A program made the position numbers and the translations under genes. From NCBI RefSeq assembly GCF_011045215.1, contig NZ_CP049202.1: a stretch of 64,000 nucleotides of DNA. The stretch is one strand, 5' to 3'. The stretch's first letter is position 1. Each line of letters starts with the position of its first letter. The notes beneath the pieces are model-generated. The model was not told the origin of the DNA. It did no database searches and saw nothing but the letters and a program-made list of their open reading frames with translations. The stretch comes from Escherichia coli (GTDB lineage Bacteria > Pseudomonadota > Gammaproteobacteria > Enterobacterales > Enterobacteriaceae). Below are positions 1,625-21,217 of this stretch, one piece after another.

Positions 1625-4600
1625 TCAGTCTCCGCCCAGGGTTTTCTCTTTCTGCAGGTCACGAACCATATCCCGCTCCATCTGCTGCAGTCGCTCCTGC
1701 AGCAGATTTTCCCGGGCAACCTCCCGGACCGCTTCCCGCACCCGTTGTGGTTCACGCAGTACACTCTCCGGCAGCGCGGCTTCCCGTTCAGTTATGGCAG
1801 CCCGGTCACGCTCCTGCCCGGCAATCTCCCTGACAGCCTGCTCTGTTTTGCCATCCGGCAGGTCAGGTTTGTTCTCTGCCATTTTACGGACAATTTCATC
1901 TGCGCGACGTTCCGTTTCACGGCGGATGGCCTCTTCAGCCTGCCGCTGTGCCAGTACCTCTGCCGTGACCGGTTCGCCATTTCCGGCCCCCGGCTGGACG
2001 CTGTTGTCCGGAATATCTCCCCACACGCGACCACCGGTGATGGCACCGGGATTCCACGGGCGACCTTCACCGGCAATTCTCACCACCACACCGCTGTCAG
2101 GATTATCACGAGCAATCCGGACGCCATCCTGCATGTTATCAGCCAGCAGACTCTCTCCGTTACGGCTGCCCTGCAGGGCCACGAACTGCGCATCTCCGCT
2201 GCCTTTCACCCGGCCTTCACCGCTGAATCCCCGCAGCCCGTTTCCGTCATCCGTAGTCAGTGGGTTCAGCCAGATACCGGCGGACTTGCCGTTACGGTCA
2301 AAAGCCGGCAGTGCCACATACGGCTGCGGATATTTGCGCCCCGGTGCAATAAACCGTGCAGGACTGTCTCCCCCGGCAAGTCCCGCCTGACGGAGAACGG
2401 CACGCCCTGCCGCCACGTCCCGCAGTTCCCGTGCCGTACTGAACAGTCGCTCTGCATTCATGACCTCCCGGTCAGCTTTCGGCTCCAGCACATCGTGGGC
2501 AGTCCCTTTCTGTACGGCATTGTTGATGGCATCCGTCCAGCCCTGACGGTCATCAGTGTACACCTGCACATGCTGCTTCATACGCGACAGGGCAACGTAG
2601 GCTGACTCAAAGCCGGCCATCTGTTTCCGGCCACCTTCCGTGCCTTCAAGCGCGATGGCAAAGGTTTCACTCGCCCCCTGTGCACCGTGGGCAGTGATGG
2701 CATAGGCCAGGTCAATATGTTGTTCTGCCTGCTCCTGACCGGGGCGAATCACCCGGGTCTGCAGTCCGTCAGAAAGCGTGACACTGTCACCGGAAACCGC
2801 CGTCACCGTCCAGACGCTGTTGGCCACATAGCCGCGCTCCCGGTCACTCTTCGTGAAGCGCATCCGGTCACCGGTCCCCACCCGGATGGTGTCCGGGGTG
2901 TACAGTGTGACACCTTCAGCCACCGCCTCCCGGGGCGAAATCAGCCGCGTGTTACCTTCCGCATCCTGCAGGGTTATCAGCCCGTCACCCTTACTGATAC
3001 CGGCAATCCGGTGATACACATTATCCACCAGGACAAGTGCGTCCCGATGTGTCTCCCAGGTGGAGAGACGACGCAACTCCCCGTCGCGTATATTCGCTGT
3101 GTTCAGGACAGGCACCATGACCTGCTCTTTTCCCAGCTCACCGGCCTTTTCCCGTGCATCATGAATCATGCTGTTCAGTACGCGCCGGTCCTCATTCAGA
3201 TGCGTGACAATCAGCGTCTGCTCCCGTGCTTCCGGCGTCCTGCCGGTATAATCGCGGACAATGGCTTCATACAGTGTCATGGGAATATCCGGAAAAGCCT
3301 CACCTTTCAGCATCGCCTTCTGCTGCGCTTCTGCCAGTTTCGCTTCCTGGCTGTGACTGAACTCCGTCACGGAGTGCTCCGGTACCCATGCGCCCTCCTG
3401 ACGTGGCACCTGAGACGGTTTCACACTCTCAAGCCCGGACAGTGCCCTTTCCACATCCCGGTTAATCAGGCTGTATACCGCCTCCCGCAGCTCCGGCGTC
3501 TGACGCACAATCTCCTTCATGATGGCCACATCGGCAGCACTGCGCGTCTGCTGGAGACGGAAAGGCTGACCGGGCGCGATGGCCTGCAGCTGGTCCGTGT
3601 CACCACTGGCCACGGCACGACCACCACCGGCCGCAATCAGGGCGTATGCCCGTGCCATGTCGGTATTGCCCACCATTGAGCTCTCATCGAGCAGGAACAG
3701 CGTGTTGCTGAAATCCGGCGTTTCTCCGCTGCGCTGCTGCAGCTGCGTGTCATGCAGAAAGGACGCCAGTGTCTGTGCATCCACGCCAGCGCTGCGCATC
3801 TCCCCGACCGCACGGTGCGTGGGCCCCAGCCCCACGACACGGGGACGCTCACTCTCCGGCAGCATGTTCACGGCTGACATCACCGCCCGGAACTGTGTGG
3901 TCTTACCCACACCGGCATAACCCTGCACCACCGTGAAGCGGTCAGAGGTTTCCAGTATCATGCGGGTGGCGGCACGTTGCCCCGACGTCAGTTTCTCCAT
4001 AAGTTCGCCAGGTACTCTCTCCATCAGCGGCGTGACAGCCTCCTTACCTTCGAGAATATGGCGAATAATGCTTTTTTCAGCCTCATATGACGCACGGGAA
4101 ACCAGCAGGTCTGTGCCATAACCTTTTGCCACATCCACATGCAGTAAATCACCGCGTTTTATCTGTGCATCGATTTCCCGCCCCAGGTCAGCAAAACTGG
4201 TTCCTTCTGCAGCAAACGACTTTGCCTCTGTCAGCAGGTCCACATGGCTGAAGGCCAGGTTTTTACTTTCCACCACCGGAAGGGCCAGATGAATGGCCTG
4301 CTGTGCCGGCGTGTGAAGTGCGGACTTCTGATGACTGATAGCGGTTTCCAGCGATGTCTCACCGGCCCGCGCCTTTATCTGCTCAGAAACCACCGTAAAG
4401 GAGGGATGGCGGGCAAGTTTTTCCGCAGTACGGGTTTCATCCAGTGAGGAATACAGCCGGACATCACGACCGCTGCGGGCCAGACCGTTCAGGGTGGCGT
4501 TGTCCATTGCCATCTGTGTGACGGAGGCAAAAACCTTCGCACTGTCGCTGACGGAATGCCCGGGCGTTTCCACCCAGCCGTTCTCCAGCTTCAGTGCCGT

Positions 4601-15509: not shown

Positions 15510-15918
15510 TCTCGCCCTCCCTTAATTTGTTCTCCCGGCGCATACGGCGTTTCAGCAGGAATATCCGGACACCCCCGAATATTATTTCGCACAACGGCAA
15601 CAGAGAAGCCGCAGCAAGAAAACCAGCTGCAAGCGCATATAACATAATCGGAATGACATACATCAGGATGTTCCACATATAACGAAAATTATTTAATTCC
15701 GGGTCAGCTTTCCACGAATCAATACCGGCACTGAAAAAATCATGCATAACGTTCCTTACAATCAATCCGGCAACAAAGAAAACCACAAAAAGCCAGAAAT
15801 ATTTTTTTGCATTATCACAGCTGCGCTCAATACCCCGCTTAATTTTTCTGATTTTGAATTCCTGATTCTTTTTGTTTTCTTTCATTATAAGTTTCCTCTG
15901 ATATTTCTGATAATTCAT
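15493..15918 (-). CDS. trbF: TrbF-like small membrane protein (start ambiguous; alternative ATG ~15885 with strong RBS)
   Basis: Small hydrophobic ORF immediately upstream of traH, where trbF sits in F. Confidence 0.5.
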   Translation of the reverse strand: MNYQKYQRKLIMKENKKNQEFKIRKIKRGIERSCDNAKKYFWLFVVFFVAGLIVRNVMHDFFSAGIDSWKADPELNNFRYMWNILMYVIPIMLYALAAGFLAAASLLPLCEIIFGGVRIFLLKRRMRRENKLREGENDATH

Positions 15919-16135
15919 TCAGACCGGTCATGCGGCTGTAATATATTTCAGACACCGAAATCCATCCCACAATTGCCCCCACAAAAAACACAACAGAAAC
16001 AGAAAAGGTAAGACACAGCGAAACGACAATTTCTACAGGGCTGGCGGGATAAAAAAGCCCCTGACGGATAAAGGGGATATTCAGGCTGACGATTATTCCT
16101 GTCGCGATGCCGGATATTCCGGCAATGAGTAACAT
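15839..16135 (-). CDS. trbJ: TrbJ-like small membrane protein (98 aa from internal Met; track ORF begins with TTG)
   Basis: Small hydrophobic ORF between trbB and trbF; start taken at MLLIAGISG directly after the trbB stop. Confidence 0.4.
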   Translation of the reverse strand: MLLIAGISGIATGIIVSLNIPFIRQGLFYPASPVEIVVSLCLTFSVSVVFFVGAIVGWISVSEIYYSRMTGLNELSEISEETYNERKQKESGIQNQKN

Positions 16136-16142
16136 CACCTGC

Positions 16143-16688
16143 TTATTTCGCACCTTTTTTCCCTCCGTACATCTGCAGAACGGTATCCATCCGCGCCATA
16201 AAACCAGCGGCATCCGTTGCCCCCTGTAAAAGCGGTAATGCCTCAAGCGTGTTGACGTTGACCAGGAAGGTGGTCGGTGTGGCCACCGGGATATTCGGGA
16301 AGAAGGTCTGCATTACGTCAGGTGGTGCCGGTAATGCCTCCGGAAAAGCCGAATCCCCCTGACCATCCAGGGTGTAGGGAAAAACGGAAAAACCGTACTG
16401 TTGTGCCAGCTGTTTCAGCACCGGGTCAAACTGGTGACAGTAAGGGCAATGTCCCTGCATAAACAGCACCACCTTCCAGTCGGCCAGGTTAACCTGCCTG
16501 CCGTTGCTGAGGCGGAACCAGCGGGGAGCCGTTTTTTCTGTTCTGGCTGACGTACCTGCTGCTGGTTGTGCTGGCTGCGCGGCCATACCCTGCGGATTCC
16601 AGAGTCGTTCAATTTCATCCCGGGTGGAGGCCCGCACACCTGTGGCCATTATCAACAGAATGACCGGCAGTAATTTAGTGAGAGACAT
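16143..16688 (-). CDS. trbB: TrbB periplasmic thioredoxin-like disulfide isomerase (181 aa)
   Basis: Signal peptide plus CPYC thioredoxin-type active-site motif; size and position as F TrbB. Confidence 0.75.
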   Translation of the reverse strand: MSLTKLLPVILLIMATGVRASTRDEIERLWNPQGMAAQPAQPAAGTSARTEKTAPRWFRLSNGRQVNLADWKVVLFMQGHCPYCHQFDPVLKQLAQQYGFSVFPYTLDGQGDSAFPEALPAPPDVMQTFFPNIPVATPTTFLVNVNTLEALPLLQGATDAAGFMARMDTVLQMYGGKKGAK

Positions 16689-17039: not shown

Positions 17040-17354
17040 ATGGAAAAGCGATCTTTTAAAGAAAAACTGGAAATAATCAGAAACATAATAAGAGAGTCGT
17101 TACTGGGAAATGCGGCAATTATTGCGCTGATATATGCAGCATCACATTCATTACCGGTCAATGCCTTCCCTGACTATCTTGTAATAAGTTTATTAAGTAT
17201 CGCAGCAGGCATCGTTGTATTATGGTTATTTTCAATTATCTATATTTATTTTTGTGAGCTATTCAGAAGCCACTGGATTGCGGTATGGTTTATCATATGG
17301 TCTTCAGTAATCAACCTCATTATTTTGTATGGTTTTTATGACCGTTTTATATGA
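17040..17354 (+). CDS. artA: ArtA, anti-tra strand small hydrophobic protein (104 aa)
   Basis: 104-aa ORF on the strand opposite the tra operon between traQ and trbA, as for F artA. Confidence 0.55.
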   Translation: MEKRSFKEKLEIIRNIIRESLLGNAAIIALIYAASHSLPVNAFPDYLVISLLSIAAGIVVLWLFSIIYIYFCELFRSHWIAVWFIIWSSVINLIILYGFYDRFI

Positions 17355-17355
17355 C

Positions 17356-17703
17356 TTAGCCTGTCATAAGCCCCCTTATAAAAAACCACATCACTCCGGA
17401 CCATACCGATGACAACATAATACAGATAAATATTCTTCTGAACCTGTCGAAGCTCGTAACGTCCGGTAATGCGGCCGCAACTATTGAAACAACCATTGCT
17501 GCGCCCTGATTCATAATTGCACCACACAGAAACCAGAGACTGGCGGTAAGCACATATAAACACGCAATATTAATAACAAGGAAAACCAGTGAGCTCAGGA
17601 GAAACATTTTCCTGTCATTACGCTCAGAAAAGAAATAACCGGCAATAATGACAAATATTAACAGAACAACACCTGTAAACATTTTCAAATAATCTTCACT
17701 CAT
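17356..17703 (-). CDS. trbA: TrbA small inner-membrane protein (115 aa)
   Basis: 115-aa hydrophobic ORF between traF and traQ, as F trbA. Confidence 0.55.
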   Translation of the reverse strand: MSEDYLKMFTGVVLLIFVIIAGYFFSERNDRKMFLLSSLVFLVINIACLYVLTASLWFLCGAIMNQGAAMVVSIVAAALPDVTSFDRFRRIFICIMLSSVWSGVMWFFIRGLMTG

Positions 17704-18738: not shown

Positions 18739-20613
18739 TTACAGTCCTGCCTGTTTCAGCTGGTCAGCAATCTGCTCTTTCACTTTCTGCGTCAGAACAC
18801 CACTGTCCGGGATTTTCTGGTTATTCATCAGGTCTTCGTAGAAGTTAGTGAAATCCAGTCTGTCGAACTGAATTTTCTGCAGCTCATCAACCGTAATCCC
18901 CCGACAGTCAGGATGCTTCGCACTGCCAAAACTGATACGCAACTGACCGTTGCGCCCCTGCTGCTGGACTATCTGCGCCAGCTTCGAATCAAACTGACAG
19001 TAGCTGCGTTTTTTCTCCAGACAGACGCCCAGCACTTTCTTCGAACAGAACTCCCCGACGCTGACGGTCAGTTTGTTTGATTTTTCTTTAGCCAGGGCTT
19101 TTTCATCACTGCTGCATTTGGCCAGCCCGATATCCTGTCCCCAGCCGCTGTCCTTACAGCAGTTGCTGTATCCGGCTGCTGCCTTCTTACAAAATTTCGC
19201 CTGACCGGTGAAAGCACGGACATCCACCCCGTTCAGCGCCGCAATATCCTTACCTGCAGCGGCCAGTGCCGCCAGCTGAGAAACAGCTTCGGCAAAATCA
19301 TTACTCTGCCCGCTCTGAGCCTTATCGCATTCGCCATCGAGACAGAAGACGTCTCCCCCACAGAGCATCACTTTCCCGGATGTTTTTGACTCACAGGAGT
19401 ACGTGGCATATTCATGCAGACAGGCACCTTCTTCGGAGTAAAAGGCGCACTGGTGTGACACCAGGGTACAGGCTGGATTGTCGGTGTAGGTCTGACAGGT
19501 TCCCTTGTCTGCTGACTGTGTGACATACGTGTCCCGGTATGCCCAGCAGCTCTGGTACATGCTGTATGACTGACCGTCTTTCACCAGCGTCCTGTTCCCG
19601 CCAGCCTCCGTACATTCTGTTTTTGTCAGTTTCCCCAGCTCCTTGCTGAACGGGCAGCTTTCAGACCAGACAACATACGGGGTGTACGAGGCTTTTTTTA
19701 CCCTGACAACCAGACGCAGCTTCATTGCCGTATGACGTTTGAATTTTGTATTCCCGACCCGGACGGGGTGAGATGACGTAAAAGCCACACCGGCAGTCAG
19801 TGTTTTCTGTACTGGTGTAAATGAGGCATCTGCTGAGTATTTGGCATTCCAGCTCAGTGGGGTTCCCAGTACTGTAATTGTCATAGGTACACTCTTCTGC
19901 AGGTAAGTACGACTCCAGCTGTAATGCGCATCGACAATTTCACCGGTAACGGGAGAGGTAATGGAGACAACATACTGACCATTCACTTCACGTGCAGGTA
20001 GCTGACTCATTTCATACTCCAGCGTCCGGGTTTCCCATGTGGTACTCCCCTGCAGCTCCATACGGGCAGTTCGTGTGCAGTACTGCTCCACCTGTAAATC
20101 CCTCTCACAGGTATAATTCGTGTATTCACTCCGGCTAATCTCCTGCGCACTGCACTGCTGCCCGGTGTTTCCCACAATGCTGTCAGCCCGGTTCACCACA
20201 TCCCTGTCGGTCTGGATAAACGGTGCATCCGGTGAAAGAATGTCTTTCGGCTTGTTCATGAATGACTCTGTGATGGTTTTTCCGGTTTCACCGGTCGCCC
20301 ATTCCGTGGTGCCGTCATTTTTCAGGCCGCCATCCCCGCCGGCAGTCACGCCACCGTAATATTTTGTCTCGTCCGGATTCGCGTTATAGCCGGGGATACT
20401 CTCCTGTGGCTTAAAGCCCTGAATACTGCTGCTTCCCTGTCCTTTGATCTGGTGAGCAAAATCAGAGCCGGCCCGGTAATCACTGTTGCTGTCAGCAAAC
20501 ACAGAAAAGCTCAGGAAAAAAACAATTGCACAAAGATTGCACGGCTTTACGGAATAATTAAAATTCAGAGATCTGAAAAAGGTATTTATCTTTTCTTTCA
20601 TAACCTGAACCAT
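18739..20613 (-). CDS. traN: TraN outer-membrane mating-pair stabilisation protein (Cys-rich; start ambiguous between ATG 20613 and ATG 20601)
   Basis: Signal peptide then mature N-terminus ADSNSDYRAGSDFAHQIKGQG; many conserved Cys residues typical of TraN. Confidence 0.9.
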   Translation of the reverse strand: MVQVMKEKINTFFRSLNFNYSVKPCNLCAIVFFLSFSVFADSNSDYRAGSDFAHQIKGQGSSSIQGFKPQESIPGYNANPDETKYYGGVTAGGDGGLKNDGTTEWATGETGKTITESFMNKPKDILSPDAPFIQTDRDVVNRADSIVGNTGQQCSAQEISRSEYTNYTCERDLQVEQYCTRTARMELQGSTTWETRTLEYEMSQLPAREVNGQYVVSITSPVTGEIVDAHYSWSRTYLQKSVPMTITVLGTPLSWNAKYSADASFTPVQKTLTAGVAFTSSHPVRVGNTKFKRHTAMKLRLVVRVKKASYTPYVVWSESCPFSKELGKLTKTECTEAGGNRTLVKDGQSYSMYQSCWAYRDTYVTQSADKGTCQTYTDNPACTLVSHQCAFYSEEGACLHEYATYSCESKTSGKVMLCGGDVFCLDGECDKAQSGQSNDFAEAVSQLAALAAAGKDIAALNGVDVRAFTGQAKFCKKAAAGYSNCCKDSGWGQDIGLAKCSSDEKALAKEKSNKLTVSVGEFCSKKVLGVCLEKKRSYCQFDSKLAQIVQQQGRNGQLRISFGSAKHPDCRGITVDELQKIQFDRLDFTNFYEDLMNNQKIPDSGVLTQKVKEQIADQLKQAGL

Positions 20614-20629
20614 ACTGGAGAATGAAGTG

Positions 20630-20848
20630 ATGTCATCTCAACTTCAGAACTGTGTTGATTGTGGTAAAGCATTAAGTCGAACAGCCACAACGTGCGGGAA
20701 TTGCAGCTCAACGGACCCTTTTGGAAAAAAACGGCGCAGTGATCGCTTTTACCAGTGGTTTGTAGGGCTGTTTATTACGGCTATTATTATTGCTGGCGGA
20801 TTATGGTACATGGGGCTTCTTGACGTACCGGGATTACTACTCAGATAA
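20630..20848 (+). CDS. Hypothetical small zinc-ribbon protein with C-terminal TM helix (72 aa), antisense to the tra operon
   Basis: ATG at 20630 with GGAG ~10 nt upstream; CxxC...CxxC motif (CVDCGKAL...CGNCSS) and hydrophobic C-terminus; could be a non-coding antisense frame. Confidence 0.35.
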   Translation: MSSQLQNCVDCGKALSRTATTCGNCSSTDPFGKKRRSDRFYQWFVGLFITAIIIAGGLWYMGLLDVPGLLLR

Positions 20849-21217
20849 CGACTTCAGTAACGATATCAGTGTTCTGAAATCGGCACATAACGAGTGACGA
20901 CAATACCGGTTATACCAGTAATGAGGGGTGTCGGGCTGAAGCCTGAAACAGAGCTGAAACTCACTGTTAAAAGCCCCCTTCACCGACCATCCCCATGCCA
21001 GACGTGGTATTGCTGATTCAGCATCCTGCCGCAGTCGCTGCTCAAGAAGGGCAGCCATTTTTACCGGACAGGCAAAGGCAATATAAGGAGGCAGCTTTGT
21101 AACAGGGAAACCATGTCCCTGACAGGAAGCATATGTGCGGAAGCCGTGAATGTTCATCGCGGCCACCAGGGCACGGATCTCCGGATCAATCTGATAATAC
21201 CCGGCAGGTAAAGTCAT
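20837..21217 (-). CDS. Hypothetical protein (126 aa), translationally coupled to trbC; not in canonical F
   Basis: ATG overlaps the trbC stop (ATGA); no recognisable motif. Confidence 0.55.
   Translation of the reverse strand: MTLPAGYYQIDPEIRALVAAMNIHGFRTYASCQGHGFPVTKLPPYIAFACPVKMAALLEQRLRQDAESAIPRLAWGWSVKGAFNSEFQLCFRLQPDTPHYWYNRYCRHSLCADFRTLISLLKSLSE

Follow-up and report, generated by a model that had tools for sequence, protein, structure and literature searches.

A convergent two-gene cassette of conjugative elements encoding a predicted zinc-ribbon membrane protein and a remote relative of the TYW3 fold

Introduction

In Escherichia coli, Shigella and Klebsiella, resistance and virulence genes are carried mainly by F-like plasmids. 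The tra operons of these plasmids are thought to be fully catalogued; the small gene reported here is widespread and selected, and it is absent from most annotations. The classical gene running against the tra strand of these operons is artA, and prgQ/prgX of pCF10 is a convergent-transcription switch of the excludon type, in which opposed and overlapping units reside in a conjugation locus. A further point of reference is the TYW3/Taw3 family, described from eukaryotes and archaea, whose tRNA substrate is not expected in proteobacterial hosts. The TYW3/Taw3 fold represents a class of SAM-dependent methyltransferases marked by the signature (S/T)xSSCxGR, with an Arg that is required for function, an N-terminal Asp and a His; the invariant Asp of the N-terminal extension serves SAM binding, and the His at the end of RAGNYA strand 3 corresponds to His73 of SsTaw3 (PMC5311493).

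Here we analysed a 64,000-nucleotide stretch of E. coli DNA (from contig NZ_CP049202.1; hereafter the window), in which an F-type tra operon occupies the minus strand. Between trbC and traN it carries two small open reading frames, here called X and mini, which belong to a widely distributed and previously undescribed two-gene accessory unit of conjugative elements. This cassette is not among the features described in a comparative study of F-like transfer regions (PMC5102898), and a literature search for the gene pair and for the protein accessions returned nothing, be it transcript, protein or phenotype data. We checked plasmids F and R100, both of which lack X and mini, and this may explain why the cassette is absent from the classical literature.

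Results

The positions of all features are compiled in Table 1. An ATGA motif couples trbC to X (trbC stop TGA at 21216-21214, X start ATG at 21217-21215), as had been noted in a first-pass annotation of this DNA, and the genes trbC and traN, correctly taken there to be adjacent in F, overlap directly in that plasmid. The second open reading frame, mini, lies on the opposite strand, and all that had been ascribed to it is present, i.e. 72 codons, a GGAG element, a CxxC...CxxC motif, a transmembrane (TM) helix and an overlap with the 3′ end of X. Its start had been placed 17 nt from that of traN; the closeness holds, with a measured distance of 16 nt to the most upstream ATG (20613) or 28 nt to the RefSeq start (20601). 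The two genes are divergent, without overlap of their coding sequences. An in-frame GTG at 20627 would extend mini to 73 amino acids, and this codon is not kept in relatives according to a four-way DNA alignment. Plasmid A of E. coli strain C5 (NZ_CP010123.1) is 100% identical to the window across the region. In its RefSeq annotation X is a hypothetical protein and the 235-bp gap between traN and X is empty, leaving mini unannotated.

Two other hypothetical open reading frames are located nearby, between traU and trbC, which are adjacent in F. They encode proteins of 150 and 116 amino acids (RefSeq WP_057698276.1 and WP_057698277.1) without any family match save a weak PADLOC hit of the 150-aa protein to 'E1-E2' (E 7e-4). 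In addition, the annotation of the plasmid identical to the window marks trbJ as a pseudogene disrupted by a frameshift.

Table 1 Features of the window (without locus label) and of related loci (L numbers)
Feature	Position	Strand	Description
trbC	21214..21870	-	NCBIfam TrbC, E 7.5e-131; upstream tra gene
X	20837..21217	-	126-aa ORF, predicted cytoplasmic protein
mini	20630..20848	+	72-aa ORF
traN	18739..20613 (most upstream ATG); 18739..20601 (RefSeq start)	-	downstream tra gene
mini/X convergent 3′ overlap	20837-20848	both	12 nt; mini stop inside X 3′ end
Cassette	20550..21217	both	DNA homology to traH|traG copies; ~80 nt upstream of mini, mini and X
Shine-Dalgarno GGAG of mini	20617-20620	+	9 nt before ATG 20630
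AT-rich region upstream of mini	20537..20592	+	32% GC; within traN 5′ end
Candidate sigma-70 promoter	20537-20564	+	TTGCAC-16-TAAAAT; predicted, looser scan
Candidate sigma-70 promoter	20564-20592	+	TTCAGA-17-TATCTT; predicted, looser scan
Terminator-like hairpin, rejected	21037-21055	+	3′ of mini
traN signal peptide	20494..20601	-	36 aa, atypical
artA	17040..17354	+	protein identical to F ArtA WP_000415566.1
trbA	17356..17703	-	convergent with artA, 1-nt gap
150-aa ORF	21880..22332	-	hypothetical, between traU and trbC
116-aa ORF	22325..22675	-	hypothetical, between traU and trbC
trbJ	about 15838..16153		pseudogene; L030 1339..1654
mini/X overlap, window and L006			12 nt; trbC|traN
mini/X overlap, L026 and L027			15 nt; traH|traG; mini 76-80% identical to window copy
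mini/X overlap, L003 (pENTE01)			32 nt; traH|traG
mini/X overlap, L028 and L044			33 nt; after traR/traV
mini/X overlap, L011			36 nt; trbC|traN
mini/X overlap, L013 and L014			42 nt; Bordetella sp. FB-8 chromosome, element with VirB8-11, TrwB and TrwC
mini/X overlap, L021			60 nt; K. michiganensis MOBH plasmid, near ArdC and N6-methylase
mini/X overlap, L025			78 nt; beside exonuclease and phosphatase genes
mini/X overlap, L012			84 nt; element with TopoIII, PLD and OmpA genes
mini/X overlap, L004			86 nt; Providencia, upstream of traH
mini/X overlap, L029			144 nt; between TraF-family (PF13728) gene and short unannotated ORF, adjoins PIN-domain gene pair
X homologue, L021 (NZ_CP048109.1)	3663..4121	-	intact, unannotated in RefSeq
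HNH endonuclease gene, L007 (pHNFP460-1)	1898..2320	tra strand	between X and traN
Stand-alone mini, L005	2998..3249		
Stand-alone mini, L015	6001..6240		
Stand-alone mini, L023	2126..2377		
Decayed pair, L022 (NZ_OU659132.1)	3552..4141		X in three frames, mini truncated

Homology on the DNA level between the window and copies located between traH and traG begins near 20550 and ends at the ATG of X, with unrelated flanks, which delimits a cassette of ~0.7 kb. For copies that occupy different slots, the homologous DNA comprises exactly the mini upstream region, mini and X. When HMMs of mini and X were run on the six-frame open reading frames of every fetched locus, 11 diverged lineages showed mini and an X homologue in convergent orientation with their stops overlapping; the overlap measures 12 to 144 nt (Table 1). 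The carriers are proteobacterial conjugative elements, from gamma- as well as betaproteobacteria, and the pair occupies no fewer than four slots of F-type tra operons and also a VirB-type Bordetella element and other elements, which amounts to at least three kinds of transfer system, at protein identities between the paired lineages of 30-66%. Across the same plasmid pairs, the dS values of mini and X track each other. The overlap of mini with the 126-aa gene had been treated as incidental at first; it is the convergent 3′ overlap with X that turned out to be the feature conserved everywhere. We are highly confident that mini and X are a real gene pair forming a conserved module.

In the two non-F contexts L021 and L025 the pair sits where two opposed transcription units meet, so that the aspect of an antisense gene within an operon is not universal. 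The intact X homologue of L021, which is unannotated in RefSeq, overlaps a mini that is annotated.

Mini and X need not occur together. X is present in 935 plasmids and mini in 129, and X is usually alone, as in the arrangement trbC-X-traN of Raoultella and Klebsiella, in trbC-X-HNH-traN of pHNFP460-1 and in traW-X-traU. Unpaired X genes fall inside clades of paired ones, their identity to the nearest X that has a mini being 88% and 71%. In pHNFP460-1 the place of mini is taken by a tra-strand gene for an HNH endonuclease; this plasmid represents a common variant, with an X protein 86% identical to the window X and 565 records in the band of 80-90%. Conversely, mini without X was found in two clades, in Burkholderia plasmids and in metagenomic contigs adjoining a PAAR gene. 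Of these stand-alone minis (L005, L015 and L023), those of Burkholderia follow PAAR, VRR-NUC and TsiV genes, which are of type VI effector and immunity kinds, and those of the metagenomic contigs adjoin PAAR and DUF4145 genes. In L005, a second, unrelated zinc-ribbon-TM open reading frame (93 aa) is located just upstream of the mini relative.

That each gene is found without the other, that X-only genes are close in sequence to paired ones and that the stand-alone minis (PAAR, VRR-NUC, TsiV, DUF4145) have conflict-type neighbourhoods would all suit two functionally independent genes with a merely historical linkage, captured once and spread together. In such a scenario mini would be a stand-alone membrane protein, e.g. 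an exclusion, immunity or fertility-inhibition factor, and X an unrelated accessory enzyme. Yet neutral hitch-hiking is not expected to outlast a divergence over which the convergent overlap geometry has been held in 11 lineages, and we regard independence of the two genes as possible but rather unlikely.

Upstream of mini, GGAGAATG and the mini ATG are invariant in the four-way DNA alignment, and a purine-rich stretch resembling a Shine-Dalgarno sequence precedes the start in most mini relatives inspected. A stricter consensus promoter scan gave no plus-strand promoter for mini; the looser scan returned two candidate sigma-70 promoters in the AT-rich region at the 5′ end of traN (Table 1). 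The blocks ATTAAAAT and TTAT.TTTT.TTTCATA (−10-like) are kept between copies in different tra slots. On the tra strand no terminator-like site was detected between X and traN, so that transcription of the operon must cross mini in antisense. Rfam gave no match on the region at E<=1. A terminator-like hairpin located 3′ of mini was treated as a chance structure and is not kept in L026 and L027. Since this hairpin is not conserved, the mini transcript would extend in antisense over the X 3′ end at the least. We also rejected as a conserved gene a third, tra-strand open reading frame upstream of mini (MKEKINTFF...): the similarity between copies extends over only ~14 codons, which coincide with the mini promoter/UTR region, and the frame is absent from L011.

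It is important to note that the window traN has an atypical signal peptide of 36 amino acids (MKEKINTFFRSLNFNYSVKPCNLCAIVFFLSFSVFA|DSNSDY), and that TraN of other F-like plasmids has one of 18 amino acids (MKRLLPLLLGLAVSVAQA|DSNSDY). The first ~15 traN codons derive from cassette sequence upstream of mini, which indicates that the insertion replaced the traN 5′ end.

In a model built on the first-pass annotation, the mini locus would mainly exert antisense control over traN translation in the manner of artA. In the window this is geometrically possible, because the promoter of mini must lie within the first ~100 nt of traN and the mini transcript would thus have a 5′ UTR complementary to the traN start and able to pair with it; moreover, artA demonstrates that F-type operons tolerate genes on the anti-tra strand. 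However, the proximity to the traN start is specific to the plasmid lineage of the window. Elsewhere the gene upstream of mini is traG, traH, a PLD nuclease gene or another one, with spacers of 30-260 nt and often of 100-260 nt, and plasmids with the order trbC-X-traN that lack mini are far commoner. Selection also acts on the mini protein and not just on its RNA. As to artA, the parallel in orientation holds, but BLASTP of mini against ArtA (WP_000415566.1) gave no alignment at E<=100 and the protein architectures differ. Taken together, a locus devoted mainly to traN antisense control appears improbable.

The mini protein (MSSQLQNCVDCGKALSRTATTCGNCSSTDPFGKKRRSDRFYQWFVGLFITAIIIAGGLWYMGLLDVPGLLLR) has an N-terminal C4 zinc ribbon (C8/C11 and C22/C25) of the pattern CxxC-x3-LSxTAxxCxxCxSxDPFG, which a basic linker joins to a single hydrophobic helix; a short tail ends the protein. 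As the basic stretch KKRRSDR precedes the helix and a single basic residue follows it, the positive-inside rule assigns the N terminus to the inside. Mini is thus predicted to be a single-pass inner-membrane protein with a zinc ribbon facing the cytoplasm. Its best-conserved part is the soluble zinc ribbon, not the helix: among 20 homologues with identities down to ~31%, 13 residues are invariant (C8, C11, L15, S16, T18, A19, C22, C25, S27, D29, P30, F31 and G32), and the TM segment then follows.

A small membrane-protein gene that resides on mobile elements, is overlapped by an opposing transcript and often loses its partner may also bring to mind an addiction module. Under this reading mini would be the toxin, acting at the membrane and neutralised by X or by tra RNA in antisense; the reverse assignment could also apply. 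The conservation pattern of mini, with its (predicted cytoplasmic) ribbon rather than its helix under the strongest constraint, argues against this idea, as do the lack of any match to PADLOC or to known toxin/antitoxin families and the lack of an Rfam antisense RNA. Furthermore, both genes survive alone in many elements, which would be unexpected for a toxin and its antidote. We deem an addiction module very unlikely.

By tblastn, mini matches were obtained in 129 of 72,556 plasmids (119 with a coverage of >=80%), most of them F-like plasmids of Escherichia and Shigella, with relatives at 46-51% identity in pENTE01 of Enterobacter sp. 638 and in Providencia and at ~40% in Burkholderia. A profile search of 5.8 billion proteins added further distant members. 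Mini is carried by 126 of 5,426 complete E. coli genomes, including Shigella plasmids from human faeces, and a metagenome scan returned mostly copies of the E. coli type plus four distant loci. No relatives were detected in viral contigs scanned with the mini profile. Some records contain a mini annotated by PGAP (WP_135276000.1, WP_041689766.1 and WP_162122470.1). The dN/dS values (NG86) of mini are 0.13 versus L006 (12 synonymous and 6 non-synonymous changes), 0.15 versus L026 and 0.105 versus L027, and the range is also given as 0.10-0.19; values for X, from the same plasmid pairs, are comparable (0.11-0.18). A lack of protein-level conservation among relatives had been named beforehand as the finding that would speak against an anti-tra-strand gene. 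Conservation reaches down to ~31% identity, and judging from its substitution pattern mini is a genuine gene under purifying selection. The notion of a chance open reading frame in a non-coding spacer, which could draw on the shortness of mini and on its missing annotation in the RefSeq record identical to the window, is refuted by this conservation as a protein at a dN/dS of ~0.1-0.2, by the 13 invariant residues, by the SD-like stretch in most relatives inspected and by the presence in 129 plasmids with few natural copies truncated or frameshifted, and deserves practically no credence.

Among the damaged copies, CP055749.1 and CP057965.1 (hits H3, H4 and H83) are near-identical to the query and 1 nt shorter over its 1001 nt. 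Their mini matches fall into two pieces, which points to a natural frameshift mutant of mini with X intact. In NZ_OU659132.1 of Providencia alcalifaciens, a degraded, non-mobilizable F-type plasmid, the pair has decayed.

Neither mini nor X has a match above threshold in NCBIfam, PHROGs, PADLOC or Pfam. For mini, the best independent Pfam E values of 0.004-0.02, to DZR, Zn_ribbon_3 and DUF2116, are below family thresholds; of its relatives, up to 15 of 20 match Pfam DZR at E<=0.1 and none at E<=0.001. There is also a weak match to ribosomal protein L40e (E 0.04).

The X family comprises at least 781 clusters at 50% identity (exhaustive profile search, E<=1e-3) and shares the near-invariant motif T-x-A-S-C-Q-G-H, which reads T28-Y-A-S31-C32-Q-G34-H35 in the window X. 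A genome-contig scan with the X profile returned five loci, the pattern being too narrow. Tandem duplications are found among the X relatives, and one relative carries a fused PLD-like nuclease domain. The AlphaFold2 model of X, based on an alignment of 91 sequences, has a pLDDT of 92 and a pTM of 0.84 and the topology helix, two strands, helix, two strands, helix. A fold search against AFDB50 retrieved uncharacterised relatives only, and one against BFVD gave weak matches to uncharacterised jumbo-phage proteins and no others.

The X profile matches 2qg3 (E 0.008) and 2drv (E 0.014), which are TYW3/Taw3 structures (PF02676) like 1tlj and 2dvk. The matched segment D..I..L...N....T.SSC.G contains the TYW3 Asp and the T.SSC.G motif, and the near-invariant D11 of X aligns with the first Asp of VDxDI in 2qg3/2drv, where the choice between the two Asp residues is that of the profile alignment alone. 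In the reverse direction, Pfam TYW3 matches one of 39 long X relatives at E<=0.001 and eight at E<=0.1; X itself has no match to PF02676 even at E<=10. Compared with the TYW3 signature, X keeps T, S, C and G, but the first Ser is replaced by Ala and the Arg by a near-invariant His, so that X departs from the signature. Moreover, X has 126 residues versus ~200 (190-210) in TYW3, i.e. it is ~75 residues shorter, and probably lacks part of the three-domain architecture of TYW3/Taw3 (N-terminal extension, SHS2 and RAGNYA). On the basis of profile and model we classify X as a remote and truncated relative of the TYW3 fold and not as a TYW3 enzyme. Binding of a ligand (SAM or a nucleotide) by X is plausible. 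Catalytic activity is doubtful, because X is shorter than TYW3 and a His takes the place of the essential Arg. In the literature searched, we found no TYW3 in conjugative plasmids.

Discussion

Beyond the existence of the module, we propose a functional partnership of mini and X with reciprocal, convergent expression, a proposal that we would give an even chance. Beside the type IV secretion machinery, at the inner membrane, the zinc ribbon of mini would bind X or regulate it. X is read as part of the transfer operon and would probably bind SAM or a related nucleotide, whereas mini is, in F-type operons, read against it, and the convergent 3′ overlap would make the expression of the two genes reciprocal. 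Strong tra transcription would run head-on through mini and silence it. Conversely, when tra is repressed, mini would be made, from a transcript antisense to the X 3′ end and, in the plasmid lineage of the window only, with a 5′ UTR also antisense to the traN ribosome-binding site. A model of X fused to mini through a linker of 30 residues gave a pTM of 0.60, from an output in which the interface is not readable; the mini part (block-mean pLDDT 80-96) shows two beta hairpins and a long helix.

In a more specific version of this partnership, X would be a TYW3-type methyltransferase that binds SAM, modifies a target in conjugation or in the recipient and is gated by mini, with the gene overlap acting as a toggle between tra-ON and tra-OFF. 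This version is unlikely in our estimation. If true, X-mini would be a module of a new kind, for accessory control or for establishment, common to F-type and VirB-type elements.

Mini pairs with an uncharacterised family embedded in type IV secretion loci, and the rare TYW3 methyltransferase-like fold has not previously been linked to conjugative plasmids in the literature searched. The pair represents a target for an accessory conjugation function that can be tested by knock-out, and a natural case of convergent transcription inside a 30-kb operon.

Among described zinc ribbons, the generic C4 type shares the spacing CxxC-x10-CxxC with mini, with weak matches, but its LSxTA and SxDPFG signature, together with the TM helix fused to the ribbon, sets the mini family apart from DZR, Zn_ribbon_3, DUF2116 and L40e. 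By these sequence traits mini constitutes a separate, uncurated zinc-ribbon family. With regard to type I toxin-antitoxin systems of the hok/sok type, neither protein matches a toxin in PADLOC or NCBIfam, which sets the pair outside that class.

As both artA and mini are present, the tra operon of the window carries two antisense genes. They are alike in that each encodes a small membrane protein, is read in opposition to the tra operon and converges on a small gene of the tra strand. In other respects they differ: ArtA is a multi-TM protein of 104 amino acids without cysteine pairs or zinc ribbon, whereas mini combines a single TM helix with a zinc ribbon; the partner of artA, TrbA, is a membrane protein unrelated to X; artA abuts trbA without overlap, whereas mini overlaps X; and the position of artA is fixed, whereas the mini-X cassette occurs in several slots and in non-F elements. 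The likeness is hence one of orientation and layout only. With prgQ/prgX the pair has in common two opposed, overlapping units within a conjugation locus that could give mutually exclusive expression; unlike in prgQ/prgX, the overlap of mini and X involves the 3′ ends of two protein genes, and the promoters are here predicted ones.
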